A stretch of DNA of 64,000 bases from Candidatus Omnitrophota bacterium (GCA_043813915.1 JBDRKO010000001.1:64835-128834); one strand, 5' to 3'. Positions 7,804 through 64,000 are shown, counted from the first letter of the stretch. Notes: generated by a model from the letters alone, not told the origin. Numbers and translations: made by a program.

Positions 7804-8160
7804 CTATTCGTATAATTGTATCTCATGATCCTCTTCCCCGATGCCCATGACCACGGAATTATCCGATATTTTCTTTATGCGGAAATTCTGCGTACCGTAA
7901 CCCTCTTTCATCATCTCGCCGTTTATTATCGCGGTATAGGACCCGTCCGCTCCTTTGATTATTCCCTGCAGGGATACATCGCTAACCGAAAGGATCGCTC
8001 CGCCCTCTACCTGAACGTCAGCGCTCACTCCGACCAAGGGGACGAAAGGATCCCTTTTGACCGAAGCGGCGCGCTCCGCCGGGAACGCGTAAGCCGGAAC
8101 ACATACGGCCGCTAAGAATAATACAGTAAGCTTTATCTTCATGCTATTGACCTGAAACAT
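7804..8160 (-). CDS. pilP: pilus assembly protein PilP-like (secreted, or lipoprotein if the first C after the signal peptide is lipid-modified)
   Basis: Signal peptide MKIKLTVLFLAAVCVPAYA, small beta-rich protein between pilO and pilQ. Confidence 0.5.
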   Translation of the reverse strand: MFQVNSMKIKLTVLFLAAVCVPAYAFPAERAASVKRDPFVPLVGVSADVQVEGGAILSVSDVSLQGIIKGADGSYTAIINGEMMKEGYGTQNFRIKKISDNSVVMGIGEEDHEIQLYE

Positions 8161-9399: not shown

Positions 9400-9453
9400 A
9401 GCACAGTAAGACCCTCCGATGAAAAACGTTCATCCTCCCGTATTCTCCGGACT

Positions 9454-10470: not shown

Positions 10471-10590
10471 TACATGGGAAAAGCCGGTGCACGTCCATTC
10501 TCTCCTGGACTCATCGTATTATTATAATATCTCTATAGGAGAGGTTATCATACACATTTCCTATTGTCAAGACATGCCGCGCCGGGACGG

Positions 10591-10917
10591 TCATTCCAGA
10601 CGATGCCCTTCTGCCGTGCAGGCAGGATATGATTCGGTATCCCCTATGCTGTAAGTCCCTCCCGCCGGACATGACGGCTGGCTTTGAAGATATGCCGGCA
10701 CAAGATCATCCCAGCCGGGAGCGCCTGTCGCGACGGTCCCGGACTCGATCGCCCAGATCTCTTTAGCGTTATCAATACCCTTGAGATTTGACAGACATGA
10801 GTATAAATGCGTCCTTTCCCTGGATCTCTTAAAATTGGGTATCGCGACCGCTAACATCACGCCGAGTATCGACACGACTATCATTATTTCTACTAGTGTA
10901 AACCCTTTTTTTCTCAA
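10591..10917 (-). CDS. type IV pilin / GspG-like pseudopilin (TTG start)
   Basis: MRKKG|FTLVEIMIVVSILGV prepilin motif; SCLSNLKGIDNA PVC-type motif; own TTGATT-N16-TATACT promoter and AGGAGG RBS. Confidence 0.7.
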   Translation of the reverse strand: MRKKGFTLVEIMIVVSILGVMLAVAIPNFKRSRERTHLYSCLSNLKGIDNAKEIWAIESGTVATGAPGWDDLVPAYLQSQPSCPAGGTYSIGDTESYPACTAEGHRLE

Positions 10918-11002
10918 GCACCCCTCCTAAGTTCTTTACCCTGAAGTATACATTGTTTTTACGAGTAATCAAACTCCCACATAAATAAAATAAAAAAATA
11001 AA

Positions 11003-11044
11003 AAAAAAATAAAAAAAAGGGAACGGCCGTTAACGACCGTTCCC
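11003..11044 (-). terminator. rho-independent terminator downstream of second pilin gene
   Basis: GGGAACGGCCGT-TAA-CGACCGTTCCC hairpin followed on the minus strand by a >15 nt U tract. Confidence 0.6.
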
Positions 11045-11067
11045 TTTTCAGCTCAAAACCGTACGTG

Positions 11068-11397
11068 TTACTGGAGCTTATGTCCGGCAGTGCTGCATGT
11101 AGGTCTCGTTCCTGAAATATCATATGTGCCCTTAGCCGGACATGCCGGAGTGGCTTTCAGATAATCCGGGGAAAGAGCTGCGAGCGTGGCGGGGTTAGCC
11201 CCCGTATCCAGGTTATAAAGCACCATCGCCCCTTCTATCTGCTTCAGGTTGGATATACATGCATTTTTTTGAGCACTTTCTCTGGCTTTCACAAAGTTCG
11301 GTATGGCTATAGCAGCCAATAAACCTATAATTGCGACTACGATCATAATTTCGACCAATGTGAAACCCTTTTTACCCAATAATTTCTGCATTTTCAT
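11068..11397 (-). CDS. pilA: type IV pilin / GspG-like pseudopilin, probable major pilin
   Basis: MKMQKLLGKKG|FTLVEIMIVVAIIGLLAAIAIPNF; ACISNLKQIEGA motif; strong SD AAGGAGGTG 7 nt upstream; own promoter and strong terminator. Confidence 0.75.
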   Translation of the reverse strand: MKMQKLLGKKGFTLVEIMIVVAIIGLLAAIAIPNFVKARESAQKNACISNLKQIEGAMVLYNLDTGANPATLAALSPDYLKATPACPAKGTYDISGTRPTCSTAGHKLQ

Positions 11398-11445
11398 TGT
11401 TCTCACCTCCTTTCTTTTTTTAAACACCTATAACCTGAGTATACC

Positions 11446-11474
11446 TTTGCCAAGAGCGAATTGCAAGTGAACGG
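11446..11474 (-). promoter_or_regulatory. putative sigma70 promoter of the pilin gene (TTGCAA-N17-TATACT)
   Basis: Read on the minus strand between pilC stop and pilin start. Confidence 0.35.
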
Positions 11475-11512
11475 CGTTTTTGCTCCGCCGGACACGTAAA
11501 GCGTCAAAATAT

Positions 11513-12730
11513 CTAGAAACTGACGCTAGAGCTCATCTTGAATATCGGCAGGAACATACATATGACTATACCGCCTATCACTATACCCAGAAAGGCTATA
11601 ACCAAGGGTTCGATAAGACTGGTAAGCCCGTCGACAGTTGAATCAACCTGTTCGTCATAGAAATCCGCTATTTTCTCCAGCATCATCTCCAGTTCACCGC
11701 TTTTTTCCCCTACCGCGATCATCCGGGTCACAAGAGGCGGGAAAATACCGCTTTTTTCCATAGGCAATGCGATACTCTCTCCTCCTCTTACGCTTTCTTT
11801 GACCTGATATACGGTTTTTTCCACCACTAAATTGCCGGAAGTCTTCGCCACGATATCGAGTGCTCCTAGTATGGGAACGCCGCTTTTTACCAAGGTGCCC
11901 AGCGTGCGGGTAAATTTACTTATCGCCACCTTGCTGAACAAAGTCCCGAATACGGGCAAACGAAGCTTTATCCCGTCTATCGCGTACTTTCCGTTCTCGG
12001 TCCTCATATACGCCTTTAACGCCACGACCGCCAAGGCGATCAGCACCATCAGCGTCACGAAATTGCTCCTGGTCCAGTTGCTCAGCGCTATAAGGAACTG
12101 CGTCGGCTTTGGAAGGTCCGCCCCTAGTCCCGAGAACATATCCTCGAACACCGGGATGACCTTGATTATCATAACGAGAGTTATCACGACCGCCATAGCG
12201 CTTACAACAGCCGGATATATCATTGCGGAACCCAATTTTTTCTGGAGAGCGCTTGTCTTTTCAAGATGCATCGCTACCCTATCAAGGACCTCTTCCAGCA
12301 TACCGCTGGATTCTCCTGCCTTTATCATGTTTATAAAGTAGGATGAGAACATCGCGGAATATTTCCCCATCGCTTCCGACAAACTGGCCCCGGTATTAAC
12401 GGCGCTGTACACATCCTTGAGCACTCTTTTCATCCGCGGATTATCCACTTGGGCCGCGAGCGTGTCAAGGGATTCTATTATCGTTATCCCGGCACCCGTC
12501 ATAGTTGCCATCTGCCTGGAAAATATCACCAGTTCTTCCAAAGGGACTTTTCCCGAGGTATTTTTAGAGGAAGGGAAAAAGGTTTTTTTTTCTTTTTTCT
12601 TCTCTATCTTAAGTACAAGCAGCTCTTTTCCTCGCAGCATTTCCAAAGCATGCGGCTGATCCAGCGCCTGGACCTCCCCGTTTACGGTCTGTCCGTCCTT
12701 GTTCTTTGCTGTATAGATAAAATCCGACAT
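11513..12730 (-). CDS. pilC: type IV pilus platform protein PilC (GspF family)
   Basis: Two GspF repeats, 405 aa, polytopic membrane protein. Confidence 0.85.
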   Translation of the reverse strand: MSDFIYTAKNKDGQTVNGEVQALDQPHALEMLRGKELLVLKIEKKKEKKTFFPSSKNTSGKVPLEELVIFSRQMATMTGAGITIIESLDTLAAQVDNPRMKRVLKDVYSAVNTGASLSEAMGKYSAMFSSYFINMIKAGESSGMLEEVLDRVAMHLEKTSALQKKLGSAMIYPAVVSAMAVVITLVMIIKVIPVFEDMFSGLGADLPKPTQFLIALSNWTRSNFVTLMVLIALAVVALKAYMRTENGKYAIDGIKLRLPVFGTLFSKVAISKFTRTLGTLVKSGVPILGALDIVAKTSGNLVVEKTVYQVKESVRGGESIALPMEKSGIFPPLVTRMIAVGEKSGELEMMLEKIADFYDEQVDSTVDGLTSLIEPLVIAFLGIVIGGIVICMFLPIFKMSSSVSF

Positions 12731-12743
12731 TTTTCCTTATCCG

Positions 12744-14456
12744 TTATGTTACCCTCATTACTTCCTCTAATGTGGTCCACCCCTTGATGAACTTTATCAT
12801 AGCGTTGTCCCTCAGTGTATTGACCTTCTTCTCCCTAAGATATTTTTTTATATTTTCCTCGGACTCCCTGCGGTTTATCATCGCCCGAATATCATCATCT
12901 ATGAGAAGCGTCTCCAGCGTCCCCAACCGCCCGCTATAACCTGTGCCGTTACACCTCTTACACCCCGTTGCGGCGAAAAACTCTTTTGTCTCCCGGGCTT
13001 CGGGGTATTTCTCCATGATCTCCTTCAAGAGTTTCTCCGGTATCTTGGTCTCCGTCTTGCAGCTCGGGCAGAGCTTCCTCAAAAGACGCTGAGCGCATGC
13101 CATGATAAGGCTTGAAGCGATAAGAAAAGGTTCTATACCCATATTTACCAGACGTGTTATCGCCCCCACAGAGTCATTGGTATGGAGCGTGCTTAGGACC
13201 AGCTGTCCCGTTAGAGAGGCCTTTGTCGCTATATCCGCGGTTTCAAGGTCCCGTATCTCACCGATCATTATCACGTCCGGGCTCTGCCTCAGTATCGCCC
13301 TCAACCCGCCTGTAAAATCCAGCCCGATCTCCGGGCGCGCGGCTATCTGAGTGATACCTCCGACCTGATATTCTACGGGATCCTCTACCGTAAGGATGTT
13401 CTTCTCCGGCGTATTCATCTCATTGAGTATGGAATACAATGTAGTTGATTTCCCGCTCCCCGTAGGTCCGGTAACGAGTATTATCCCGAACGGCTTTAAC
13501 AAGGCTTCCCTGAAATCAGCGAGCGGTCCGGGAAGGAACCCAAGGGTCTCAAGCCCCACGGAAAGATTGCTCCTGTCCAGAGCCCTGAGCACTATCTTAT
13601 TACCGAAACTCGTCGGCAGGGACGATACGCGGAAATCCACTTCCTTCTTGTCCGTCTTTATGCGGAACCTTCCGTCCTGAGGCACCCGGGTCTCCGTAAT
13701 ATCCAGATTGGACATTATCTTAAGACGCGCGAGTATAGCGTTCTGGTTCTTTTTAGGAAGATCGAACACATCCTGTAACTGCCCGTCCACTCGGTACCTT
13801 ATGCGCAGATTTTTTTCCTGCGGTTCGATATGTATGTCACTGGCCCGTTTTTTCAGCGCTTCAGAGATGATCAGGTCCACCATTTTTATTATGGGCGCCG
13901 CCTTGCTCTCTTTTGCTATTTCGTTCATGTCGGCGTCATCGCCGCGCGACAGGAACTCGACATCCGAATCGCCGCGTTCCTCCTCCTCGTCTATCATTTC
14001 GGTGAGATTATCCTCTTCTGACCTGTAAAAATTATTCAGGGCTTCCTGTATGTCTTTGCGGGTAGACAGAACGAGTTTCACATTGCAGCCGGAAATGGTC
14101 TTTATATCGTCGATCGCGAGAACATCCGCGGGATTAGCGACAACCAAAGTGATGTCGTTCCCTATTTTAGAAAGAGGCACAACCAGATGCCTCCTGAGAA
14201 GTTTTTCCGGTATAGAACCCACGATATCGGGATCCATTGACATTCTCGACACATCGATAAAAGGAACACCCATAACGCGGCTGACGACGGTCAAAAGTTC
14301 TTGGTCCGATATCATCCCGCTTTCCGTGAACATGTTTATAATGTCCCCGTCGGTCTCTTCCTGAAGGTTCTTAAGCATACCCTCGATGCGGTCCCTTTCG
14401 ACAAGACCGTTATCCAGAAGCTCTTTTAGTATCTTTTCCCTAAGGGATACTTCCAT
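12744..14456 (-). CDS. pilB: type IV pilus/T2SS assembly ATPase PilB/GspE paralogue 1
   Basis: GspE_N domain, Walker A GPTGSGKSTT, Asp/His boxes, tetracysteine CPSC...CKRC. Confidence 0.85.
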   Translation of the reverse strand: MEVSLREKILKELLDNGLVERDRIEGMLKNLQEETDGDIINMFTESGMISDQELLTVVSRVMGVPFIDVSRMSMDPDIVGSIPEKLLRRHLVVPLSKIGNDITLVVANPADVLAIDDIKTISGCNVKLVLSTRKDIQEALNNFYRSEEDNLTEMIDEEEERGDSDVEFLSRGDDADMNEIAKESKAAPIIKMVDLIISEALKKRASDIHIEPQEKNLRIRYRVDGQLQDVFDLPKKNQNAILARLKIMSNLDITETRVPQDGRFRIKTDKKEVDFRVSSLPTSFGNKIVLRALDRSNLSVGLETLGFLPGPLADFREALLKPFGIILVTGPTGSGKSTTLYSILNEMNTPEKNILTVEDPVEYQVGGITQIAARPEIGLDFTGGLRAILRQSPDVIMIGEIRDLETADIATKASLTGQLVLSTLHTNDSVGAITRLVNMGIEPFLIASSLIMACAQRLLRKLCPSCKTETKIPEKLLKEIMEKYPEARETKEFFAATGCKRCNGTGYSGRLGTLETLLIDDDIRAMINRRESEENIKKYLREKKVNTLRDNAMIKFIKGWTTLEEVMRVT

Positions 14457-14466
14457 CCCTCCCCCT

Positions 14467-16194
14467 TCACTGCGCTGTTTCCCTGTCCGCTGTCGTCACT
14501 CTCAATACTTCTTCCAACGATGTCTTTCCTTCCAACACGTTCTCTATCCCGTTCTCCCTCAGTGTTACCATGCCTTCTTTTCTCGCTACGCTCTCTATCT
14601 CGGCTTCTTGGGCCTTTTCAAAGATCAACTTTTTTATTTCCGGTGAAAGTTTCATACACTCTATTATCCCTATACGGCCAAGATATCCGGTATTAGAACA
14701 GCGTTTGCATCCTTTGGGCCGGCAGATTCTGACCTTCTTTCCGTCTTTACCGAAAAGCCTGAACTTCCCGGCAATATCATCCGTCGGCTCATATGCTTCT
14801 TTGCAGTCGCTGCAGAGTTGACGGATCAGCCTCTGCGCGGCCACCAGTTCTACGGAGGCCGCTATAAGGAATGGGTCGATCCCCATATTCGTCATCCTTA
14901 TTATGGAACCGGCGGCGGTATTGGTATGGAGCGTACTGAGCACCAAGTGCCCTGTAAGCGCCGATTTTATAGCGACATCAAGCGTGTCATAATCCCTTAT
15001 CTCCCCGACCATGATTATGTCGGGGTCCTGCCGCAAGATAGATCTTAACGTGCTGGCGAACGTAAGCCCCACTTCCTCGTTGACCGCTACTTGGTTCAGC
15101 CCTTTCATTTCGTATTCGACCGGATCCTCTACGGTTATTATGTTCTTTTTCGGATCGTCCACATGGCACATCGCGGCGTATAGAGTGGTCGTCTTTCCGC
15201 ACCCGGTAGGTCCGCAGATGAGGATCATACCGTGAGGTTTTTCGCTAGCTTCCTTTATCCTCGCGCTGTCCCGATCTTTCAAGCCCAGCCTATCGAGATC
15301 TATGACCGCCTGTTCTTTGTCCAGGATTCGCAAGGCGACCTTTTCCCCGAAACTGGACGGGACAGTAGATATACGAAAATCCACTTTCCTGTCCTCTATC
15401 TTTATCCGGAACCGTCCGTCCTGAGGCAAGCGTCTCTCGGTAATATCCAGACCGGACATGACCTTAAGCCGGGAAACTAACGCCTGGTGGAATTTGCGGG
15501 GGGGACTGTAACTTACGTGAAGCATACCGTCGACCCGGTATCTTATACGCGATTCGTTCTCCATGGGTTCGATGAGAATATCGCTTGCCCTTTCTTTGAC
15601 CGCCCGCCCGAGTATCATGTTGGTGAGCTTGACGACCGGCGCCTCTTCGGTTATGCGCAGAAGGTCTCCCGAAGAAAGGTTCTCATCTTCCTCTTTCACC
15701 ATCTCCATTTTCGCGCTCTCGATGTCATCTGCTATAGTAGATATCTCCTCATCCGCGGATCTTTCATGATATTTTCGTATGGCATCCTGCATATCGTCTT
15801 CCGCGACAATAACGGGACTTATGTGCATGTTCGTAACGGCCTTCAGGTCGTCCAAAGCCATTATGTTCAGAGGATCCACCATCGCCACGGTAAGCTGATC
15901 AGCCGTGTGCGATATCGGCAGTATTTGATACGCGATGGATATCTTTTTCGGAATGATCTTCAGGGTATCTTCATCGATATGGAAGCTTGAAAGTTTCATC
16001 GGGGGAAACCCGAGTTCCTCGCTTACGGAGGTCATTATGTCATCTTTTGAAATGAGGTTCATCCCAACGAGCGTTTCGCTGAGGCTCCCCCCCTTCTTGG
16101 AACATATCTCCCATGCTTTGCGGAGATCATTTTCGGTCACCAGTTTTTTTTTGACCAGGAATTCACAGATCCTCTTAGTAAGCGACAATGCCAT
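14467..16194 (-). CDS. PilB/GspE-family ATPase paralogue 2
   Basis: Same architecture, Walker A GPTGCGKTTT, CSDC...CKRC; N-terminal MshEN-like motifs degenerate. Confidence 0.85.
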   Translation of the reverse strand: MALSLTKRICEFLVKKKLVTENDLRKAWEICSKKGGSLSETLVGMNLISKDDIMTSVSEELGFPPMKLSSFHIDEDTLKIIPKKISIAYQILPISHTADQLTVAMVDPLNIMALDDLKAVTNMHISPVIVAEDDMQDAIRKYHERSADEEISTIADDIESAKMEMVKEEDENLSSGDLLRITEEAPVVKLTNMILGRAVKERASDILIEPMENESRIRYRVDGMLHVSYSPPRKFHQALVSRLKVMSGLDITERRLPQDGRFRIKIEDRKVDFRISTVPSSFGEKVALRILDKEQAVIDLDRLGLKDRDSARIKEASEKPHGMILICGPTGCGKTTTLYAAMCHVDDPKKNIITVEDPVEYEMKGLNQVAVNEEVGLTFASTLRSILRQDPDIIMVGEIRDYDTLDVAIKSALTGHLVLSTLHTNTAAGSIIRMTNMGIDPFLIAASVELVAAQRLIRQLCSDCKEAYEPTDDIAGKFRLFGKDGKKVRICRPKGCKRCSNTGYLGRIGIIECMKLSPEIKKLIFEKAQEAEIESVARKEGMVTLRENGIENVLEGKTSLEEVLRVTTADRETAQ

Positions 16195-16221
16195 TACCGA
16201 TCCTTCCAGACTTTAGAGTTA

Positions 16222-16683
16222 TTATTGATATAGCTTATTCAAAGCGTCCTGTATCGACGTAACCGTCGAAATAAAAACCTGGATCTTTTTCTTGGTTATC
16301 ATCTCTATGTCCTCAATAGCTTTGGTGTTCAGAGGGTTGGACATAGCAACGCTCAAGATGTTGCCCATTATATCCAGAGGGACTATGCTGTACTGCCGCG
16401 CCACATTTTCAGGCACTATCCTGACGATCTGCTTCTTCAGCTCGTAATTCTCCAACGGCAGATACGGGAACCCGTACTGTACGGTCAGCGCCTGCACAAT
16501 ATCCCGTTCTTTTACATATCCCAATTTGACCAGTATCTCCCCTATGAGACCTCCCTCTCTTGTTTGATAATCAAGAGCTCTCTGAAGCTGGTCTTCCGAA
16601 AGGACCCCCGTTGAGATAAGGATGTCCCCGAGCTTTTTCCTTTCTTTGGAACCGTCAAAATTCATATTGCCACCGTCTCCCAA
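16222..16683 (-). CDS. stand-alone GspE_N/MshEN-type domain protein, predicted c-di-GMP receptor
   Basis: Two consecutive 24-residue MshEN motifs KLGDILISTGVLSEDQLQRALDYQ-TREGG-LIGEILVKLGYVKERDIVQALTVQ; 153 aa, no ATPase domain. Confidence 0.7.
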   Translation of the reverse strand: MGDGGNMNFDGSKERKKLGDILISTGVLSEDQLQRALDYQTREGGLIGEILVKLGYVKERDIVQALTVQYGFPYLPLENYELKKQIVRIVPENVARQYSIVPLDIMGNILSVAMSNPLNTKAIEDIEMITKKKIQVFISTVTSIQDALNKLYQ

Positions 16684-16686
16684 TGA

Positions 16687-17748
16687 TCATGAAATAAGTT
16701 TGGACAGCTCTTCCACGTCCGACGATCTTCCTATGGCCTCTTCCGCGCTTATCTCGCCTTTTTCATAAAGCTCCGCTAAAGCCTGGTTCATGGTCTTCAT
16801 CCCGCTCTTCTGCGACGTCTGTATAACGGAATATATCTGATGCTCCTTACCGTCCCTTATCAGGCTGCGTATCGCCGGGTTAGCGACCAGTATCTCCGAA
16901 GCCAGGACTCTGCCTTTACCGTTCTTTCTTGGAACGAGCTGCTGCGATATGATTCCCGAAAGCACAAAAGACAGCTGTGCTCTGATCTGTTTCTGCTGAT
17001 GCGCCGGAAAAACATCCACTATACGGTTTATGGTCTGTGTACTGTCCGAAGTATGAAGCGTCCCCAGGACAAGATGCCCCGTATCCGCTATTATCATAGC
17101 CTGCTGAATGGTATCCACGTCCCTGAGCTCTCCTATCAGTATAACATCCGGGTCCTGCCTCAATACATGCACCAGCGCGTTCGTAAAAGAATGCGTATCC
17201 TCCAGCAGCTGGCGCTGGTCGACTATGGCCATATTGTTATCGTGAACGAACTCTATCGGGTCTTCGACGGTTACGATATGACAATCCCTTGTCCGGTTTA
17301 TCTCATCCACGATCGCCGCCAGTGTAGTGGATTTACCGCTTCCCGTCGCTCCCGTCACAAGAACGAGCCCTTTAAGCATTTCGCAGAATTTCCCGACAAC
17401 TTTTTCGGGCAAGCCGCATTCCGATATCCCTTTTATGGAAAGAGGTATAAGTCTTATCGCGCATCCTATTTCGCCCCGCTGCAGGAAGATATTTCCTCTG
17501 TACCTGGCTACCCCTTCTATGGAAAGCGAGAAATCCAGTTCTTTATCCTTCTCGAATCTCTCCAATTGTTCCGGCGTAAGAAGGCTGTGTATAATGTCTC
17601 TTGCTTCATCTCCCGACAGGGCCTTTCCTTCTATTTCCACCAGGCGTCCGTCAATACGATAGTGCATAGGGGAGTTCACCCCTATATGCATATCCGACGC
17701 GTCGTTCGCCGGCATCGCGGACAGCAGTTTGCGGATATCATCTCTCAT
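16687..17748 (-). CDS. pilT: twitching motility retraction ATPase PilT
   Basis: 353 aa, Walker A GATGSGKSTT, PilT-type Asp/His boxes. Confidence 0.85.
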   Translation of the reverse strand: MRDDIRKLLSAMPANDASDMHIGVNSPMHYRIDGRLVEIEGKALSGDEARDIIHSLLTPEQLERFEKDKELDFSLSIEGVARYRGNIFLQRGEIGCAIRLIPLSIKGISECGLPEKVVGKFCEMLKGLVLVTGATGSGKSTTLAAIVDEINRTRDCHIVTVEDPIEFVHDNNMAIVDQRQLLEDTHSFTNALVHVLRQDPDVILIGELRDVDTIQQAMIIADTGHLVLGTLHTSDSTQTINRIVDVFPAHQQKQIRAQLSFVLSGIISQQLVPRKNGKGRVLASEILVANPAIRSLIRDGKEHQIYSVIQTSQKSGMKTMNQALAELYEKGEISAEEAIGRSSDVEELSKLIS

Positions 17749-17778
17749 AGGGATCTATCCTTTCGGAGCTTATTGCCA

Positions 17779-18639
17779 TTATTCCCCGTTTACCCTGTTC
17801 TTGCCGCTCTTTTTAGCTTTGTCCAGATATCTCTTCGCGCTGAAAACCACCTCTTTGACATCCGACCCGTCTATCGGGTTCTCCCCTACACCGAGGCTCA
17901 CGGTGATACGGGTACCCGAAATATCCATCTGTTCCACGCGTTTCCGTATGTCCTCCGCGGTCTCCAACGCTTCGCGTTTATTCCTTTCGGGAAGCAACAT
18001 GCCGAATTCATCCGAAGATGTCCGCGCGAGCGTCCCTACGGGCGGAACTATACCGCTCAAGAGGTTCGCTACCGACTTAAGGGCCTTCTCTGCCATCTCC
18101 GGACCGTGAGTATTCGAATATTTTTTGCAGTCATCGATGTTCAGTATTATGAGAGAACACGGTCTCTGAAAATACTGCGCCCGTTTGAGTTCTTCTCCCA
18201 TACACTCCTCCATATGCGAAAAAGTATAAAGCCCGGTAAGCCTGTCTATAACGTCCTTGCTGCCTCTTTTTTCTTCTTGCATCCGTATCTTGGCTACCAT
18301 TTCGTTCACGCCGTTGGCTATATCTCCGAGTTCATCCTCGCGGCGCAGGGTTATATTCGCATCATACCTTCCCCCCGCTATTTTTTTTACTTCGTTCGCC
18401 ATATCCACAAGAGGCAGGACTATGGTCCTTGCCAGAAGATACCCCATCCAAGATACCCATAACGAGAATATGACTATTATGGACACTTGGAGCATTTCAC
18501 GTTCCATCTCGCGAAATATATAGTTCGTAACGAAATACGCCATGCTCAAGAGAGGGATTATGGACATCAGAGAGAACGCAATAAGCAGTTTCTGCTTTAC
18601 GCTTCTTCTTTCAAGCGACATATTTTTGGCTAAGCCCAT
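17779..18639 (-). CDS. membrane HAMP-GGDEF protein with degenerate active site (SSDEF)
   Basis: Two TM helices, HAMP, then GGDEF fold (DRLTGLYTF...NIDDCKKYSNTHG...RTSSDEFGMLL) with GG replaced by SS and no RxxD I-site. Confidence 0.75.
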   Translation of the reverse strand: MGLAKNMSLERRSVKQKLLIAFSLMSIIPLLSMAYFVTNYIFREMEREMLQVSIIVIFSLWVSWMGYLLARTIVLPLVDMANEVKKIAGGRYDANITLRREDELGDIANGVNEMVAKIRMQEEKRGSKDVIDRLTGLYTFSHMEECMGEELKRAQYFQRPCSLIILNIDDCKKYSNTHGPEMAEKALKSVANLLSGIVPPVGTLARTSSDEFGMLLPERNKREALETAEDIRKRVEQMDISGTRITVSLGVGENPIDGSDVKEVVFSAKRYLDKAKKSGKNRVNGE

Positions 18640-52964: not shown

Positions 52965-53134
52965 TTTAATCCACTAACAATAGAGAGTATACATAAAAGC
53001 AGGGATTTTGTCAAATAAGTAACTTTCTTGAGTTTTAAATTTTACGAGGAATTACACAGCATATAGCGGTTTTAATAATACAGACCACATTGTATGGTGG
53101 CTTGAAGTATTCGAAAAAACTTTATTTTTTTACC

Positions 53135-53314: not shown

Positions 53315-53361
53315 AAAAAAAAAAAAAAAAGGGGTGAGACAGACCTTATCTATCTCACCCC
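53315..53361 (-). terminator. strong rho-independent terminator, hairpin structure is bidirectional
   Basis: GGGGTGAGAcagaccttatctaTCTCACCCC hairpin flanked by A16 on one side (U16 on the minus strand) and TTTTATCTT on the other. Confidence 0.6.
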
Positions 53362-53385
53362 TTTTATCTTCACATACATTACGCC

Positions 53386-53730
53386 TTAAGCGGCCTTTTC
53401 AGCCTGCGCCTTTTTCTGCTCTTCCTGGAGCTTCCTCTTGTAGCATTTCTTTGTGCAGTAAAAAGCGCCGTTCCTGTAATACCAAAGTTTTTTAAGCAAC
53501 GCTTTAGCGCATGCCGCACACTCCGTAGGTTTAGGCGGTTTCTTTGCCTTAGGCATCCGCGGATCACCTTTCTTAACTTCTTCCTTAGGCGCTTCTTCGG
53601 TTTTCTCTGCGGGCTTTTCCACCGCTTTTTCTTTTGCGGCAGGCGCCGCCTTTTCCTCGGTCACAGCTTCTTTTGTTTCCTCTGCGGTCTCCTGCGCGTC
53701 GTCTTTCTTCTCTTCTTCTGAGCTCATCAT
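53386..53730 (-). CDS. hypothetical protein: acidic/Lys-rich low-complexity N-terminus plus C-terminal Cys4 zinc-ribbon-like motif
   Basis: ECAACAKALLKKLWYYRNGAFYCTKKC; ATGA-coupled to the upstream PilZ gene. Confidence 0.45.
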   Translation of the reverse strand: MMSSEEEKKDDAQETAEETKEAVTEEKAAPAAKEKAVEKPAEKTEEAPKEEVKKGDPRMPKAKKPPKPTECAACAKALLKKLWYYRNGAFYCTKKCYKRKLQEEQKKAQAEKAA

Positions 53731-54098
53731 TCCTCCGTTTTTATGTCTACTCTACCTGTTTTTTTTGACGTTATCCATTTTTTATATATGTGCTCGAGTA
53801 TTCTTCCCCTATCCTCGCTATTGATCTTTTTGAATTTTATCCCGCTCGCGTGTCCGTCCCCTTCGCCGGTCATCCCTCCGGCCCAGGCTATCTGCCCCTC
53901 GAATATTATGGGGACATTATCCCCTGGGATCATGACCTCCATTTCAATATTCTCTCCCATGCCGAGAGGCTCATCGCTCAAAAGCCCCGCACCTTCCCTG
54001 CAGAAGTTGTTGACCTTGACCCTTTTTAAAGATCCTCTCCTGCGGCATATAGCATCCAATAAAACATCAAAACGCATGAACCTTCTCTGCTCCGACAT
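53727..54098 (-). CDS. PilZ-domain c-di-GMP-binding protein
   Basis: RRFMR (RxxxR) and NFCREGAGLL (D/NxSxxG) motifs, 123 aa. Confidence 0.65.
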   Translation of the reverse strand: MSEQRRFMRFDVLLDAICRRRGSLKRVKVNNFCREGAGLLSDEPLGMGENIEMEVMIPGDNVPIIFEGQIAWAGGMTGEGDGHASGIKFKKINSEDRGRILEHIYKKWITSKKTGRVDIKTEE

Positions 54099-54170
54099 CC
54101 ATCCTCCCGTTCAAAAAAAACACACATCCTCCCCATCGCGACACACCGCTCCAACCCCGGTAAGGACACT

Positions 54171-54202
54171 AAACAAAAAGGGAACGATGCGAGATCGTCC
54201 CC
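54171..54202 (-). terminator. rho-independent terminator after small secreted-protein gene
   Basis: GGGGACGATCTCGCATCGTTCCC hairpin followed by TTTTTGTTT on the minus strand. Confidence 0.45.
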
Positions 54203-54234
54203 TTCTTGTTAAACATTCACATCATCGATGCGAT

Positions 54235-54564
54235 CTATTCGCTAAATACAAATTCAGGCTCAATGACCGGCTGGTAATCTTCCGGTATTGGGAACGGGAA
54301 CGTTACAGCTTCATAAACACCTGCACCTGTTCTCACGATAGTCATACCGATACCTTTCGCCAGACCCATTGTAAGTCCGGAAAGCACGTTCTCTTCAACG
54401 CTGGTCTCATAGATGTTCTTGGGAAGTTCAACCCACCCTGTCAATATGTTAGCGATACCTCTGCCGAGTTTCTTGGCAGGATCCTGCGCATAACACTGAG
54501 TGGTCATACCTACCATAGCTATGACAACGCAACATACGAACAACACTTTTAATGTCTTCTGCAT
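54235..54564 (-). CDS. small secreted protein (signal peptide, about 85 aa mature), resembles exosortase-associated TIGR04073-type proteins
   Basis: MQKTLKVLFVCCVVIAMVGMTTQCYA signal peptide; KKLGRGIANILTGWVELPKNIYE motif; consensus promoter TTGACA-N17-TATACT, strong SD AAGAGGAGGTG, own terminator. Confidence 0.5.
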   Translation of the reverse strand: MQKTLKVLFVCCVVIAMVGMTTQCYAQDPAKKLGRGIANILTGWVELPKNIYETSVEENVLSGLTMGLAKGIGMTIVRTGAGVYEAVTFPFPIPEDYQPVIEPEFVFSE

Positions 54565-54611
54565 AATACTATTTCACCTCCTCTTTATATATACGAATTA
54601 AATTCTAGTGA

Positions 54612-54640
54612 AGTATATCACGCACTTTTTACTATGTCAA
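54612..54640 (-). promoter_or_regulatory. near-consensus sigma70 promoter (TTGACA-N17-TATACT) for the small secreted protein gene
   Basis: Read on the minus strand in the 72-bp gap upstream of 54564. Confidence 0.4.
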
Positions 54641-55005
54641 GTGCCGGGTCCCAATAGCCCGTTTATCAGGCCTTCTATTCTTTCCCTGTCCTTCCTGTCT
54701 AGGTCGGTAAATTCCACCCCTGTGTCATACGCGACCTCTCCCCCTACGGCCGACCCGTGTCCTTTTACCACCCAGACCACTTTCCCCTTACATTTTACGG
54801 GGGATCCTCCCTCTCCTAAAAACAGCTCCACACCGACCCTCTCGAACATACCTACATCATTCGGCAGTGAAACGCACACCCCGCCCTGGCCGATATTCTC
54901 GGTATTGGCGTCGAAGATCTTTTCTTCACCGTTCTTGCATATGAGTATACGGCATCTGTAATTCACCCTGGGGAATTTTCTGCCGTTCATTCCGTTCCAT
55001 GTCAT
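54637..55005 (-). CDS. PilZ-domain c-di-GMP-binding protein
   Basis: GRKFPRV (RxxxR) and NIGQGG (NxSxGG-like) motifs, 122 aa. Confidence 0.65.
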   Translation of the reverse strand: MTWNGMNGRKFPRVNYRCRILICKNGEEKIFDANTENIGQGGVCVSLPNDVGMFERVGVELFLGEGGSPVKCKGKVVWVVKGHGSAVGGEVAYDTGVEFTDLDRKDRERIEGLINGLLGPGT

Positions 55006-55045
55006 AGTGTTCTAAATATACACCAAGAATCCCGTCTAAACAAGC

Positions 55046-55606
55046 TTATCTTAATTTTAACTCGAATTCGATGCCTTCCGGAGAGCGCATGTCCACCTTA
55101 TCGGGAAAAACCCCGAGGATCATGAAACCGTCAACGATCTCCCCCGTTGACACCATCACATCGTTAATGATCGCTTTCGGACTTACCGGAGAATACATAA
55201 TACCATTGAGCGCGGGAAGCTTTGAGGGTCTTAGCTCTTTAGACAGGACCTTGTCGTCCTTTCTCTCTCTGCCATCCTTCTCTTTTTGTTCTATCTCTTT
55301 AGCCGGGCCGGATATTCTCTCGGGGACGGATATTACTTTTGAGGGGTCTCTCTTCACCTCGGCCCGGCCGCCGCTTCTCATCCAAAGCGCTCCTGAAATG
55401 ATCGCACAGACCACCAGGACAATACCCGTCGCGATAACAATAACGGTCCGGAGCGTTCTTTTCTTTCCCCGGACAAGCTTAGGTGCCTCGTATAGGTCGA
55501 AGGACGGTCCCTCTACGGTTTTGTTCTCTACCACCTCTTTTCCATAGGACTGTTTCTTAGACCTGTCCTCCTGCGCTTTTTTCAGGGCCTTGGTTATAAT
55601 GCTCAT
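55046..55606 (-). CDS. gspB: GspB-like (T2SS protein B family) bitopic protein
   Basis: N-terminus MSIITKALKKAQEDR, single TM, C-terminal LPALNGIMYSPVSPKAIINDVMVSTGEIVDGFMILGVFPDKVDM resembling GspB C-domain; downstream of exeA. Confidence 0.6.
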   Translation of the reverse strand: MSIITKALKKAQEDRSKKQSYGKEVVENKTVEGPSFDLYEAPKLVRGKKRTLRTVIVIATGIVLVVCAIISGALWMRSGGRAEVKRDPSKVISVPERISGPAKEIEQKEKDGRERKDDKVLSKELRPSKLPALNGIMYSPVSPKAIINDVMVSTGEIVDGFMILGVFPDKVDMRSPEGIEFELKLR

Positions 55607-55630
55607 CTAAAAACCTTTCCAAAGAGCCGT

Positions 55631-56461
55631 CTAAACGACGGTCTCTTGATAGTTAAATCGTCCTTCTGTCTCCTCAATGCTCCTGCGCACTACGTCCTCT
55701 TCTATCTCCCTTGTCTCCTCAACGAAACCCAGAAGCAAGGCCCTGTCACATACTATGTTGATGATCCGGGGGATCCCTTTGGAGTATACGTATATGCCCT
55801 CGACCGCTTTATCTGAAAATATCGGTTTTTCTTTCGCTCCGGCCACGAAAAGTCTGTGATCTATATACTGAGCAAGCTCTTCCTTTTCCAGAGCCCTCAC
55901 ATGGAACTTGACCCCTATACGCTGTCTGAGCTGTAACAGGTCCGGGGAATCCAATTTATCCTGCAGTTCGGGCTGTCCGACCAGCACTATCTGCAGAAGT
56001 TTCTCTTTTTCCGTCTCCAGGTTCGATAGCATACGGATAGTCTCCATCGTGGTCTTTCGGAGATTTTGCGCTTCGTCTATTATGAGGACCGCGTTATTAC
56101 CCAGACTTAGCTGTTCCAGCAGGAATTCGTTAAGCTGTTTGATAAAAGCTACTTTGCTTTTCCGTTCCGGTTCTATCCCGAAATCGCTCAAAACGGCTTC
56201 CAGCAGTTGGTTCTCGGGGAGGCTCGGGTTAAAGATCAGGGACGTTTTCGTCTTTGAGTCCAATTGATTGAGGAGCGCCCGGCATAGGGTCGTCTTGCCC
56301 GCGCCTACCTCACCGGTGATCTCCACAAATCCTTTCCTCTGCTCTATCCCGTAAGAAAGATGGGCCAACGCTTCTCTGTGCGTATGGCTGAGGTACAAAA
56401 AATTAGGATCGCTGGTTACATTGAACGGGTTTTCTTTTAGTCCGTAAAAGTCAAGATACAT
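55631..56461 (-). CDS. exeA: ExeA/GspA-family AAA ATPase
   Basis: MYLDFYGLKENPFNVTSDPNFLYLSHTHREA...GEVGAGKTTL; 276 aa, ATPase domain only. Confidence 0.8.
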   Translation of the reverse strand: MYLDFYGLKENPFNVTSDPNFLYLSHTHREALAHLSYGIEQRKGFVEITGEVGAGKTTLCRALLNQLDSKTKTSLIFNPSLPENQLLEAVLSDFGIEPERKSKVAFIKQLNEFLLEQLSLGNNAVLIIDEAQNLRKTTMETIRMLSNLETEKEKLLQIVLVGQPELQDKLDSPDLLQLRQRIGVKFHVRALEKEELAQYIDHRLFVAGAKEKPIFSDKAVEGIYVYSKGIPRIINIVCDRALLLGFVEETREIEEDVVRRSIEETEGRFNYQETVV

Positions 56462-56832
56462 ATATTCCGGTTCTCCTTGACAGCATTATACTATTAAAGA
56501 ATCAGGCAGTAAAGGTGTTTAGTAGATGGTGAATTGTATTGCGGGATATATCCGGCTACCCGGCATATTGGAACATCCTTCTTTGCCGAACTATTTTATA
56601 CTATTTGGCTTCGAAGGGATAGTTCCTGCGACAAAGTTCCTCCGAAGCCCAATAAGGCGAAGGAGAAAGCTTTAGCGAAACGAACATCCTCCCGAGAGGC
56701 GCTGAGAACGTAATCCGAGATGGATCGACACCGCGCTACACCCCAACATTACATTTACAGGGGCCCCGTAATAACATTAAATAGATGTAAGGAACCCTCC
56801 GCGTTTCGACAGAGGTGTCCGTTCAGCTTAGG

Positions 56833-60599: not shown

Positions 60600-61253
60600 T
60601 TATCCGTTCATACGCTTTATATAAGAATCTTTATACTCGGAAGACAGCTCTTCCTGCGCCTTTTTGACCTCTTCAATAGACCCATACCCTTCAATAGAGA
60701 TCTGATACCAAGATCCATTCTTCGTCATTACAGCATTATAACCCTTATCTTTAAGCTTTTCTTTCTCCGCTTCGGCCGAATCGGCATTCTTAAAAGAAGC
60801 CAGCCTTAAGTCATAGGTCTTTTCTGATAAAGGCTTTATTTCAGCTTCGACAGCGGCGGGGGTGTGCGTTTCATTGTCTTCGTATGCTAGGGGAAAGTCC
60901 TCCCCGTATTCTGCGGACGATATTTCTTCCTCCACTGCTTGTCCCTCATAGGTCAATTCTTCGGGGGCTACCTTCTCCCGGATCACCGAGGCTTCACTAT
61001 AAACCTTCTCCTGCGTCCCGGGACGCGCCGGCTCTCTTTGCCTGAAGGTCTTACCCTTTTCTACTCCTACGGCATAAGAGATTATCAGGAGCATAAGGAC
61101 AGCTATGGCCGAGATGACCGTGTATTCCACCGGAACTTTTATAACGGGAAGGAATCTCTGCCTGGGGTAGTTCTTAAAACGCCGCGGGCGGACTCCCGCG
61201 TCTCCCGTGAAACTCCCGTCGAACAGATCTACTTGTATCTTTTCTTCCTTCAT
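60600..61253 (-). CDS. SPOR-domain membrane protein
   Basis: Single TM helix then C-terminal SPOR fold (YDLRLASFKNADSAEAEKEKLKDKGYNAVMTKNGSWYQISIEGYGS). Confidence 0.6.
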   Translation of the reverse strand: MKEEKIQVDLFDGSFTGDAGVRPRRFKNYPRQRFLPVIKVPVEYTVISAIAVLMLLIISYAVGVEKGKTFRQREPARPGTQEKVYSEASVIREKVAPEELTYEGQAVEEEISSAEYGEDFPLAYEDNETHTPAAVEAEIKPLSEKTYDLRLASFKNADSAEAEKEKLKDKGYNAVMTKNGSWYQISIEGYGSIEEVKKAQEELSSEYKDSYIKRMNG

Positions 61254-61268
61254 TTATTCTTTACCTTC

Positions 61269-61937
61269 TCATTTCCCGGTCAGCATAAAAAGCGCGTTAA
61301 GAAAAGTCGGATTACCTTTATAATCAAGTACCGTAGCATACCATCCGTCCTCATCAAGAGAAAGGATGTTGTCTTTGATGCTCGGTTCCAAGGGATCCGT
61401 TATCTTAGGGGAAAAAGACATATTGATATTCAACGCTATTTCATCCTTGCCCTTGAAGTACTCATAGCTCCCGCGCACTTTCACATCTTCAGAAACAGCG
61501 TAAAGATCATATATTTTCAGCATGCGGCCGTCATAGTATAGGTTAAAGCGCACTGCATACCGCATTTCCGGATCGAACGGGAGCATCATAAGGTTCCCGG
61601 ATGATATCGAACCGTTTTTCACGGCCTTACCGAAAGATACTGTAACGCCTTTCAGAGAACAGGAAACTTCTGTCTTTTTGAAAGCGAATATTTCCTTCCA
61701 GTTCACATCTATCGACGCGGCTTCGGCGTTGACGATAATATCTTTCTTCGGAAGCTCGGCATTAACACCCTCTAAAAAAATATTCCCGCAGGAGAAACGG
61801 ATCTTTTCGTAATGCACCTTGCACCCGGCGGCTCTATCGGCAAGGAATACCGCCGCATCGCCGGCAAAGAAAAAGATCAAAGCGGCAAAAGATATCATGA
61901 CAGCGCATATCGTTAGAAATGCGGGCTTTTTCCTCAT
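61269..61937 (-). CDS. hypothetical membrane-anchored protein
   Basis: N-terminal TM anchor, ATGA overlap with the HD-GYP gene stop. Confidence 0.4.
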   Translation of the reverse strand: MRKKPAFLTICAVMISFAALIFFFAGDAAVFLADRAAGCKVHYEKIRFSCGNIFLEGVNAELPKKDIIVNAEAASIDVNWKEIFAFKKTEVSCSLKGVTVSFGKAVKNGSISSGNLMMLPFDPEMRYAVRFNLYYDGRMLKIYDLYAVSEDVKVRGSYEYFKGKDEIALNINMSFSPKITDPLEPSIKDNILSLDEDGWYATVLDYKGNPTFLNALFMLTGK

Positions 61938-63475
61938 GCTACGCCGAGTTCCTTATCAAGCAGCTTTCTTACATCCTTTCTGTGAACGGCCTCGCAAAGA
62001 GCTTCCACTATCGACGGGTCGAATTGTTTTCCGGCGCCGTTCCTCAGTTCTTTTATAGCGGTATCTACGGGCCGAGCCTTGCGGTAGGGCTTCTCCGTGA
62101 TCATAACCTCAAAAACGCTTATCACCGCGAGCATCCGAGCGGCAAGCGGTATATCTTTGCCTTTAAGCCCCTTCGGATAACCTTTCCCGTCGAACCGTTC
62201 GTGATGATAAAGTATTATCGGCACTATGGGCTTTAACGGTTTGAACTTTGATAATATCTCCGCGCCGGTCATGGGATGTTTTTTTATTATGTCATATTCA
62301 CGCCCCGTTAACCCGCCCTTTTTCATGAGCACCTTTTCCGGCACACCTATCTGCCCCGCATCGTGAAGCATAGCGGCATACTGCAGCATTTGCGTCTCTC
62401 TCTCGTTCATGTTGAATTTCGGGGCGATTATACTTATGAGTTTCACGAAGGACGCCTCCGCTCTGTGGGCGCCGTGCGAACGGTTCTGCAGAAGCCCCGC
62501 GATGCATTTTATGCTGCTCAAGGTTATATCAGCCTGCTCCTTATAAAGCTGGGCGTTCTTTATTCCGATGGCGGCCTGTTCCGACAGCGTTTTCATTATT
62601 TCCTGATCCGCCTGCGTGAACTCCTTTCCCTCGAATTTATCATACAGCGTTATGACCCCGACAACATCCTCATCTATCATGGGAACCGCGAGATAGTTCT
62701 TAGAGCGCACGGGAATCCCTTTTTTGACGGCTCTGCCCGGAGCATACTTGCCTATACGTACCTTTTTTAATTTTGTCTTTTTTTCCCTGAGATCTATGGT
62801 CGCCTTCGGAAGAAGTACTTTCCTCTTCTTATCGACGAGTTTTATCGAGCACCTGTTGGCGCGTATTACCTGCATGGAAAGACGCGCTATCCTAGGGATC
62901 AGTTCGTTAATATCAAGAGTGGACGTCATAAGCCTATGGAGAGTATGCACCGTAGACAGCGCCACGGCCCTGGGCCGTATATTCTCGTTAACCTCTTCAA
63001 GCTCGAATTCTTTTCTCACCTCGCGTATGACCGCGTCGGTCAGGGCGGTAAATATACTGCCTAGGTCTTCCGGAAGCTTGTTCTTAAATCCGCACATCAG
63101 GATAAAACCGAAAATGCTCTGTCCGCTTATAAGCGGATACGCGGCCCCGTGACAGGCCTTACCGTAACAAAAAAGACGTAACGCCCTTTTATCCCGCGTG
63201 TGCTTAATTACGCTCAGCACCTTATATATTTCTCTACGCACATCCCCTTTCCCGCCGGAGGACCTTTTTAAGTGCTCCTCGAGTTTTGTCTTTTTAAGCA
63301 TGCCGTATGACATCACCGCCGACGCGGGTATGAATATCCATTCCGGTTCTTTGATATAACGGCTGAACGCCCTTATTTCTTTTCTTCCCTGCCAGTTGTT
63401 CTTCAGGGTCGTAAAAAGTCTTTCGTTTTCCATATAAGTTTTCCCTCTTTCCCTATACAGGCTTAGTTCTCTCAC
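61934..63475 (-). CDS. GAF-domain HD-GYP c-di-GMP phosphodiesterase
   Basis: HDAGQIGVP ... HHERFDGKGYP (HD-GYP signature) preceded by GAF-like regions, 513 aa. Confidence 0.8.
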   Translation of the reverse strand: MRELSLYRERGKTYMENERLFTTLKNNWQGRKEIRAFSRYIKEPEWIFIPASAVMSYGMLKKTKLEEHLKRSSGGKGDVRREIYKVLSVIKHTRDKRALRLFCYGKACHGAAYPLISGQSIFGFILMCGFKNKLPEDLGSIFTALTDAVIREVRKEFELEEVNENIRPRAVALSTVHTLHRLMTSTLDINELIPRIARLSMQVIRANRCSIKLVDKKRKVLLPKATIDLREKKTKLKKVRIGKYAPGRAVKKGIPVRSKNYLAVPMIDEDVVGVITLYDKFEGKEFTQADQEIMKTLSEQAAIGIKNAQLYKEQADITLSSIKCIAGLLQNRSHGAHRAEASFVKLISIIAPKFNMNERETQMLQYAAMLHDAGQIGVPEKVLMKKGGLTGREYDIIKKHPMTGAEILSKFKPLKPIVPIILYHHERFDGKGYPKGLKGKDIPLAARMLAVISVFEVMITEKPYRKARPVDTAIKELRNGAGKQFDPSIVEALCEAVHRKDVRKLLDKELGVA

Positions 63476-64000
63476 ACCCTTTCATAAGGTTCGAAGAATG
63501 TTTTGTACTGATCCAAAGCATACCTGTCGGTCATGCCTGCCATATAGTCGCATATCACCCTGAACTTGTCTTCCTTTCCGATGCGCGATGAATATTGCGG
63601 AGGCAGCTGATCCGGATTTTTAATATACTCCCCGAAGAGACTGGTAAGGAAGCGCGCGGCCTTTTTAGACATCCTGACCACACGATAATGATTGTATAGT
63701 TTTTCGTACAGGACCTTCTTTAGTCCTTCTCTTTCACGGCACATATCCCCGGAGAACGATATCAACCTTCCGCCGTCAGGCGGGATATCTTCCGTTCTGA
63801 CCGGTTTCAGTTCTTTGAGATTTGCCGAGGCATTCTCTATTACGTCAGAGACCTGTTTGTTGATAAGATATCTTACTATCTGCGCCCGCTTTATGCCGTT
63901 TTCATTGTCCAGCCGGCGGGTCCCTTCCGAGAAAGATACCGCTTCATCCCATAATGCCGCGCCCTTAAGATCTTCGCCTGACAAAAATCCGCTTTTAAGA
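63472..64000 (-). CDS. dgt: dGTPase-like HD-domain triphosphohydrolase, C-terminal part only (gene continues past the window end)
   Basis: RVICDYMAGMTDRYALDQY C-terminal motif; open reading frame continues beyond the window end. Confidence 0.65.
   Translation of the reverse strand, partial: LKSGFLSGEDLKGAALWDEAVSFSEGTRRLDNENGIKRAQIVRYLINKQVSDVIENASANLKELKPVRTEDIPPDGGRLISFSGDMCREREGLKKVLYEKLYNHYRVVRMSKKAARFLTSLFGEYIKNPDQLPPQYSSRIGKEDKFRVICDYMAGMTDRYALDQYKTFFEPYERV

Follow-up and report, generated by a model that had tools for sequence, protein, structure and literature searches.

The closest described relatives of the genes reported here are the GspA/GspB-type pairs, in which an ATPase is encoded next to a membrane-anchored partner protein. 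The homology region (HR) domain of OutB binds to the secretin's N0 domain (Zhang et al. 2022, PMC9239104), and ExeB binds ExeD N0N1 (Vanderlinde et al. 2014, PMC4098917). Seven GspB archetypes have been described, one of which, in Alteromonas and Pseudoalteromonas, goes with a GspA lacking the periplasmic region, and the GspB of Escherichia coli K-12 is without an HR domain (Zhang et al. 2022, PMC9239104). Here, we analyzed 64,000 nucleotides of DNA from a Candidatus Omnitrophota bacterium (GCA_043813915.1, JBDRKO010000001.1:64835-128834; hereafter, the window), in which six minus-strand genes between positions 53386 and 56461 encode a short GspA-like ATPase, a GspB-like partner, two PilZ proteins (PilZ1 and PilZ2), a small exported protein of the TIGR04073 family and a Lys/Glu-rich Cys4 protein (KE114). 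All six had been listed in an initial annotation of this DNA, and all six were found. The region is best read as two adjacent, separately organized units, one being a GspA/GspB-type short pair and the other comprising PilZ1, the TIGR04073 gene and the PilZ2/zinc-ribbon genes, and we give this reading a probability of about 0.6. Given the published N0 binding by OutB and ExeB and the archetype whose GspA has no periplasmic region, the first unit is, as judged from its sequence, a short-GspA/GspB-type pair; the arrangement is known, and the phylum is new for it.

A short GspA-type ATPase and its GspB-like partner

The ATPase gene (55631-56461, minus strand) encodes 276 aa and is preceded by a promoter-like TTTACT-17-TATAAT site (56485-56513, minus strand; 10/12 matches in the consensus scan). 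The protein matched Pfam AAA_22 (1e-29) and had the same MYxxFFGL...PF N-terminus as ExeA and GspA, and its assignment as a short GspA/ExeA/MshM-family P-loop protein is supported by these sequence features. The initial annotation had called the gene exeA. The family assignment held, and the protein proved to be a short form, consisting of the cytoplasmic domain alone and ending at residue 276, with no transmembrane (TM) segment and no PG_binding (PF01471) match, so that the peptidoglycan-binding part is missing. In tblastn searches, the window ATPase was 46.6% identical to Ideonella GspA, 45.1% to the N. vulgaris ATPase and 43.7% to Aeromonas caviae ExeA (over residues 1-267 for GspA and ExeA); across Aeromonas ExeA, Ideonella GspA, Legionella MshM and the XrtA-locus ATPase of N. 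vulgaris, the identity was 41-47%. No relative with a solved structure was found by sequence. Aeromonas ExeAB and Ideonella GspAB were used as comparators for both proteins in place of E. coli K-12 GspA/GspB; the K-12 GspA, with no TIGR03015 match and an insignificant BLASTP result, was too divergent to serve as a positive control.

The next gene (55046-55606, minus strand) encodes a 186-aa protein with an N-terminal MSIITKALKKAQ motif, a TM segment at approximately residues 50-78, a charged linker and a C-terminal HR/PilP-type beta domain at residues 133-184. Its AlphaFold2 (AF2) model contained helices at residues 3-20 and 50-78, the latter being the TM helix, then a linker modeled as disordered, and a beta domain at 133-184 with a pLDDT of 85-93, and a Foldseek search with this model placed the PilP structures 2ivw, 2lc4 and 2y4y on top. 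The MSIIxxALKKA N-terminus is invariant in the family (the consensus with ExeB/GspB is MSxIxxAL[KR][KR]A) and matched Aeromonas ExeB MSTLLKALRRAD and Ideonella GspB MSYILDALRRAD. Among 43 family members, 25 matched PF16537 T2SSB (best E 2e-9), 17 matched CdsD_C and 4 matched T2SSC, and two database homologs carried precomputed PF16537 matches. With hhalign, the family aligned with the C-terminus of Ideonella GspB at 97% probability and with the PilP-like protein encoded elsewhere in the window (7804-8160) at 96.5%, and the family profile weakly matched two PDB entries, 2lnv (GspC HR domain, E 0.019) and 4wfw (OutB/GspB, E 0.065). These results support, at the family level, a protein that is GspB-like in its architecture and predicted fold. 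The gspB-like bitopic gene of the initial annotation was thus upheld in these two respects, but the window copy itself had no Pfam or NCBIfam match and missed the T2SSB and GspB models.

By analogy with ExeAB and OutB, the cytoplasmic ATPase would most likely engage the cytoplasmic tail of the partner (MSxIxxALKKA), and the periplasmic HR domain would most likely dock on the N0 domain of a secretin, aiding its targeting, assembly or anchoring. We also considered whether the charged polyampholyte linker replaces the missing peptidoglycan-binding domain. The linker was 49% charged in the window copy compared with a family median of 25%, and the idea was therefore rejected as a family feature.

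Conservation of the pair

Eighty related loci were fetched around relatives of the ATPase from one-genome-per-species contigs, and the window proteins were mapped onto their open reading frames (ORFs). The ATPase relatives were nearly all from Omnitrophota metagenome-assembled genomes, the closest being Candidatus Aadella gelida (82%), with many others at 56-75%; relatives labeled Verrucomicrobiota, Kiritimatiellia or Planctomycetes-Verrucomicrobia-Chlamydiae (PVC) were 63-66% identical. A GspB-like homolog, detected with the family hidden Markov model (HMM), lay directly downstream of the ATPase gene in 73 of the 74 loci with enough downstream sequence, in Omnitrophota and PVC relatives alike. 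The lone exception also had the homolog, with a slightly greater overlap with the ATPase gene. The partners in these loci were short (150-240 aa) and had no additional domain. The ATPase and GspB-like genes invert together as one two-gene unit: the PilZ1-TIGR04073-PilZ2-KE114 block was divergent from the ATPase gene in most Omnitrophota and co-directional in the window and in two related loci (L001 and L009), an order that reflects an in-place inversion of the ATPase unit.

ExeA-like ATPases accompany transposases too, as with a Geobacillus match beside IS481. A mobile-element role was rejected here because the locus is stably syntenic on the chromosome and the ATPase has a GspB-like partner.

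The PVC relatives keep the pair alone, in variable contexts with no secretion genes. In two of them (L018, 11654-19650; L023, 11655-19540), the genes that come after the pair encode a membrane protein with DUF6785/DUF6784 and a protein of ~1,750 aa with FtsX-like and M28 peptidase regions. Outside Omnitrophota, a single Ideonella locus (L084, 14285-16423) had an orphan GspA-GspB pair followed by an opposite-strand diguanylate cyclase/phosphodiesterase gene.

The TIGR03015 match and the exosortase question

In the reference loci examined, ATPases of this kind lay among exopolysaccharide (EPS) genes in XrtA loci, after MshL in the mannose-sensitive hemagglutinin (MSHA) cluster, and before exeB or gspB in Aeromonas and Ideonella. 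Against TIGR03015, the window ATPase scored 328.6 bits, 4 bits over the cutoff of 324.5, with an end-to-end alignment. The ATPase inside the complete XrtA/EPS locus of N. vulgaris pDV1 scored 427.7, the 548-aa GspA-type ATPase of Ideonella with an annotated GspB next to it scored 282.6, and two orthologs of the window gene scored 304.4 and 311.5, both under the cutoff. The HMM comparison of TIGR03015 with ExeA raised in the initial annotation did not discriminate between the types: the window score, marginally over the cutoff, lies between those of the XrtA-locus ATPase and GspA, and the orthologs fall short of the threshold. A match this near the cutoff is no evidence for an exosortase system, because the model also catches GspA/ExeA-type ATPases at ~280-330 bits. 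In a small neighbor-joining distance tree, the Omnitrophota/PVC ATPases formed a clade of their own, whose distances to the ExeA/GspA, XrtA/EPS-locus and MshM types were approximately equal, GspA being the nearest by a small margin. It is gene context rather than the TIGR03015 score that separates the types, and the context of the window ATPase matches the Aeromonas/Ideonella pattern, with the ATPase gene before its exeB/gspB-type partner.

The initial annotation had regarded a link to exosortases as equally possible. Under this alternative, the ATPase would belong to an XrtA system, the 109-aa TIGR04073 protein would be an exosortase accessory, and the locus would have become separated from a sorting/exopolysaccharide system whose other genes lie elsewhere. 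The end-to-end TIGR03015 alignment above the cutoff speaks for it, as do the TIGR04073 score (107.9 against 50) and the name given to the Omnitrophota orthologs by the Prokaryotic Genome Annotation Pipeline (PGAP), 'exosortase system-associated protein, TIGR04073 family'. However, a genuine XrtA ATPase scores 427.7, a GspA with its GspB 282.6, and the window orthologs (304-311) lie under the cutoff; in the tree, the XrtA type is no nearer to the clade than ExeA/GspA is. In the XrtA loci examined, the ATPases sit among EPS genes and xrtA with no annotated GspB-like partner, whereas the partner here is GspB-like and the neighbors of the window ATPase are thioesterase, yjbQ, aroB, PilZ and mraZ genes. 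The annotated window ORFs included no exosortase or exopolysaccharide genes, and none of the 80 related loci contained an XrtA/EPS locus (chain-length determinant, tyrosine kinase, TIGR03016, deacetylase and exosortase). PEP-CTERM-like C-termini were not seen in the ORFs of the window or of the related loci (1.1 Mb), and a Sphingomonas XrtA probe found no match in the same material, both being weak, locally biased negatives. A literature search on TIGR03015 and on Omnitrophota with exosortase returned nothing relevant, and Haft 2006 does not mention the ATPase. What the alternative draws on is an HMM score close to the cutoff and the name of a family; no xrt, EPS or PEP-CTERM genes in the sequence searched give it support from context, and we consider it very unlikely.

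A conserved TIGR04073 gene with dedicated expression signals

The gene of the 109-aa protein (54235-54564, minus strand) is monocistronic and lies within the second unit. The initial annotation had noted a resemblance to TIGR04073, and the protein is a clear member of that family, scoring 107.9 bits against a cutoff of 50 over model positions 2-75 of 75; it belongs to no Pfam family. It has a predicted signal peptide ending CYA/QD and the core KLGRGxxNxxTGWxEIP...RTxxGxYExxTFPxPxP. The protein was 70-92% identical across Omnitrophota lineages whose neighboring ATPase was 56-82% identical.

Upstream of the gene is a near-consensus sigma-70-type promoter, TTGACA-17-TATACT with a TG extension (54612-54640, minus strand; 11/12 matches in the consensus scan), and a AGGAGGTG ribosome-binding site lies 5' of the coding region. 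The gene is followed by an intrinsic terminator (54171-54202, minus strand) that was recognized by reading the sequence, a 9-bp hairpin of -12.1 kcal/mol, GGGGACGAT-ctcgc-ATCGTTCCC, and then TTTTTGTTT. A second, strong intrinsic terminator, with an 18-bp stem and a long T-run (53317-53365, minus strand; consensus scan and sequence reading), lies after KE114 and before the mraZ promoter. The near-consensus promoter, strong ribosome-binding site and terminators announced in the initial annotation were all located, and the promoter and terminator of the TIGR04073 gene are conserved across loci. Promoter-like sites were overall unenriched in the region (4 found against 4.4 expected in the consensus scan). 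Nevertheless, the promoter, with the same hexamers and spacing, recurred upstream of the TIGR04073 ortholog in ~21 of 25 related loci, and in 23 of 25 a hairpin with a T-run, its stem sequence differing between loci, stood 50-70 nt past the stop codon; this recurrence is well beyond chance.

The TIGR04073 family comprised 1,791 representative clusters (50% identity, E<=1e-3). Outside the window, its domain forms included an OmpA peptidoglycan-binding fusion, lipoproteins with a lipobox and a coiled coil, and a tandem duplication (P0231, P0141, P0211 and P0139). The OmpA fusion and the lipoprotein forms point to a role of the family in the periplasmic or outer-membrane envelope. The AF2 model of the window protein was unusable (pLDDT 54). 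A tblastn search of the protein against plasmids gave no match, a profile search aimed at the family in other phyla mostly returned the same Omnitrophota orthologs, and a literature search found no paper mentioning TIGR04073. The family name presumably derives from phylogenetic profiling. The extreme conservation and dedicated signals make this gene an unexplained element worth following.

Of 37 copies of the TIGR04073 gene, those at a second paralogous site included, 29 had a PilZ gene within 400 bp and in the same orientation. At this second site, ~6 kb from the main block, a diverged TIGR04073 paralog (120-160 aa) was followed by its own PilZ gene (L005, 2269-3147; L009, 17926-18894; L011, 2811-3706; L012, 2441-3341), so that the TIGR04073-PilZ adjacency exists at two paralogous sites. 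In a more distant relative (L088, 7611-12902; L089, 2051-7342), the TIGR04073 gene was followed by five PilZ genes in ~5 kb together with DUF4416, DUF2393 and alpha/beta hydrolase genes, and there was a weak MamF_MmsF match near this PilZ-rich stretch.

The PilZ and zinc-ribbon-like proteins

PilZ1 (54637-55005, minus strand; 122 aa) and PilZ2 (53727-54098, minus strand; 123 aa) are single-domain proteins that matched Pfam PilZ at 2e-14 and 8e-9. Their scores of 54.1 and 36.2 bits both exceeded the PF07238 cutoff of 22.5, in agreement with the initial annotation. The two known ligand-binding motifs, RxxxR and [D/N]xSxxG, were compared. In PilZ1, RxxxR reads RKFPR and the second motif takes the variant form N-I-G-x-G-G, as conserved in 36 orthologs; PilZ2 has RxxxR (RRFMR) and N-F-C-R-E-G, the family consensus being N-F-S-R-E-G (16 orthologs aligned). 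With RxxxR kept and the second motif varied, binding of cyclic di-GMP (c-di-GMP) by both proteins is plausible. These two are the only PilZ ORFs in the 64-kb window, and since both are at this locus, their presence is not simply an effect of PilZ density in the genome.

The PilZ2 stop codon overlaps the start of KE114 (ATGA), and the two genes stay adjacent across loci. KE114 (53386-53730, minus strand; 114 aa) gave sub-threshold LIM matches only and belongs to no family. Its C-terminal Cys4 zinc-ribbon-like motif, CxxC-x17-CxxxC with WYYRNGxYYCTKxC, was conserved in 39 sequences, and its N-terminal half was variable. The second unit would consist of PilZ1, a strongly promoted and terminated TIGR04073 gene for what may be an abundant exported envelope protein, and a presumably translationally coupled PilZ2/zinc-ribbon pair.

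Synteny and the link between the two units

Among the 48 loci with adequate flanks, PilZ1 was present in 30, KE114 in 29, the TIGR04073 gene in 19, PilZ2 in 16 and aroB in 39. In independent metagenome contigs (L090 and L091), dGTPase, HD-GYP, SPOR and aroB genes were co-linear with the module. Because aroB, dGTPase, HD-GYP and SPOR genes are kept as well, the neighborhood forms part of a broadly syntenic chromosomal region.

These observations bear on the possibility that the pair and the PilZ, TIGR04073 and zinc-ribbon genes are functionally unrelated and owe their adjacency to Omnitrophota-wide synteny. Consistent with it, aroB lies within 6 kb in more of the loci (39/48) than any gene of the block, the same flanking genes are co-linear in the independent contigs, a separate promoter and terminator serve the TIGR04073 gene, the PVC relatives retain the pair alone, and the inversion of the pair took place on the spot and is no test of linkage. 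Other observations argue for more than shared descent. PilZ1 abuts the ATPase gene, either divergently with gaps mostly <200 bp or co-directionally, even where the ATPases are only 56-60% identical; both PilZ genes of the window are at this locus; and the TIGR04073-PilZ adjacency is repeated at the second paralogous site in several loci. On balance, adjacency through descent is a real possibility, although one that we rate at somewhat less than even. Any functional coupling of the pair with the PilZ/TIGR04073 block is hypothetical, because the block is conserved within Omnitrophota only and lies inside the broadly syntenic region.

A more far-reaching proposal would make the whole block one Omnitrophota c-di-GMP envelope module, in which PilZ1 and/or the PilZ2/zinc-ribbon pair would pass c-di-GMP levels on to the short GspA, this ATPase would act through the GspB-like HR protein to control whether the pilus secretin is assembled or anchored, and the TIGR04073 protein would be an abundant structural partner in the periplasm or outer membrane. 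The control of secretin or pilus assembly by c-di-GMP, as suggested in the initial annotation, is a hypothesis from gene neighborhood within a broadly syntenic region, and we regard the full module as quite unlikely. If it were true, TIGR04073 would gain its first function and would no longer be tied to exosortases.

Candidate client secretins

The client of the two-gene unit could be the PilQ of the window or a different secretin encoded in another part of the genome. The sole secretin in the window is PilQ-type (6125-7786), as the initial annotation had stated, and belongs to the PilMNOP-Q type IV pilus cluster. This cluster (6125-18639, minus strand) is complete, with the secretin, a PilP-like gene, PilO, PilN, PilM, two pilins, PilC, two tandem MshEN-domain PilB/MshE ATPases, PilT and a HAMP-GGDEF cyclase; the MshEN ATPases and the cyclase suggest that several c-di-GMP inputs act on the pilus. 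The ATPase/GspB-like pair is ~46 kb away. The window secretin gave sub-threshold N0/STN-like matches, and it may plausibly offer a docking site for the HR domain.

Several points weigh against the reading as two units with a secretin-directed pair. The 186-aa protein of the window reached no GspB/T2SSB model in Pfam or NCBIfam (E<=0.1) and gave nothing against NF037978 T2SS_GspB, and the Foldseek E-values of its model were weak (best 0.044). The window ATPase is formally above the TIGR03015 cutoff. No genes specific to a type II secretion system (T2SS) were found among the annotated ORFs of the window, in line with what the initial annotation had reported for the vicinity. The pilus cluster has its own PilP-like HR protein (7804-8160; 118 aa; no Pfam match), so that there is no obvious need for this secretin to have another one. 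Finally, the PilZ/TIGR04073 neighborhood lies inside a phylum-wide syntenic block that includes housekeeping genes, and it is absent in the PVC relatives.

The pair could instead serve an envelope process other than secretin assembly, such as polysaccharide export or the insertion or anchoring of another complex, with the HR domain serving as an all-purpose adaptor in the periplasm. EPS loci that have no secretin use ATPases of this family too, the PVC contexts contain DUF6785/6784 and FtsX-like membrane proteins, a DD-carboxypeptidase and a TPR protein and no secretin, and the pilus system already possesses its PilP-like protein. However, every characterized HR/PilP/GspB-type domain binds secretin N0 (PMC9239104), and the EPS-locus ATPases examined had no GspB-like partner. 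We consider a non-secretin role unlikely and favor the two-unit reading, with the first unit acting on a secretin.

Flanking genes and other features of the window

On one side, the locus is flanked by a YbgC-type thioesterase gene, yjbQ, aroB and an NAD(P)HX epimerase gene, and on the other by mraZ, rsmH and the dcw cluster. A second TTGACA-17-TATACT site, with the same hexamers and spacing as the TIGR04073 promoter, lies at 52986-53014 (minus strand), just 5' of mraZ, with which the dcw cluster begins. Upstream of the module, at 60600-63984 (minus strand), are genes for a SPOR-domain protein, an unassigned 222-aa protein, an HD-GYP-type response regulator (c-di-GMP phosphodiesterase-like, below the cutoff) and a dGTPase fragment. 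An Rfam scan of the locus gave sub-threshold matches only, which were judged to be chance; among them, a CsrC match (53317-53507, minus strand; 23.7 bits against a gathering threshold of 61, E 4e-4) covers the 3' end of KE114 and its terminator and is most likely fortuitous. Nearly all credible genes of the window are on the minus strand and the GC skew is uniformly negative, which is consistent with a single replichore with strong gene co-orientation.

Implications and comparison with known systems

The genes described here are real, conserved across the phylum and of known families, and current understanding is not overturned by them. The universal pairing of a short GspA-like ATPase with a GspB-like HR protein in Omnitrophota and in some PVC relatives would carry a secretin-assembly system of proteobacteria over to a phylum that is uncultured, lives for the most part with hosts and depends strongly on type IV pili. 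In the region, the TIGR04073 gene is among the most conserved and best-signaled small genes, and its product is a reasonable target for work on the Omnitrophota cell envelope.

Compared with the TIGR04073 family at large, the window protein shares the signal peptide and core; it differs in being PilZ-flanked and in having conserved strong signals, with no exosortase context found in the window or the related loci. The XrtA ATPases of TIGR03015 resemble the window ATPase in aligning over the full length of the model, and the identity to the N. vulgaris member is 42-45%; the genuine member scores ~100 bits above the window protein, and its neighbor is the outer-membrane protein TIGR03016, in contrast to the GspB-like partner here. 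MshM of MSHA pilus clusters is likewise a short cytoplasmic ATPase (303 aa in the Legionella example, 41% identity) tied to a secretin, MshL. However, MshM is encoded inside the pilus cluster right after MshL and is followed in Legionella by a 351-aa hypothetical protein rather than GspB, whereas the window pair is far from the pilus cluster.

The likeness to ExeA/ExeB of Aeromonas and Vibrio and OutB of Dickeya extends to both proteins. The ATPases share the P-loop AAA_22 domain and the MYxxFFGL...PF N-terminus at 41-45% identity, and the partners share the MSxIxxAL[KR][KR]A N-terminus, one TM segment and the C-terminal HR domain. As in ExeAB and GspAB, the two genes are adjacent and co-directional, and the Ideonella gspAB genes are, like the window pair, encoded away from the main machine genes. 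The same presumably holds for Aeromonas exeAB. The differences are that ExeA and GspA are 547-548 aa long and have a TM segment, a cysteine-peptidase-like region and PF01471, all three of which are missing from the 276-aa window ATPase, and that no T2SS was seen in the window, which belongs to a different phylum, Omnitrophota, and encodes a partner that misses T2SSB and NF037978. The archetype of Alteromonas and Pseudoalteromonas, compared here by its published description only, has notably longer GspBs, some with DUF3391, than the short partner in the window; it nevertheless combines, like the window pair, a short cytoplasmic GspA with a GspB that has a membrane anchor and a periplasmic HR domain (PMC9239104).

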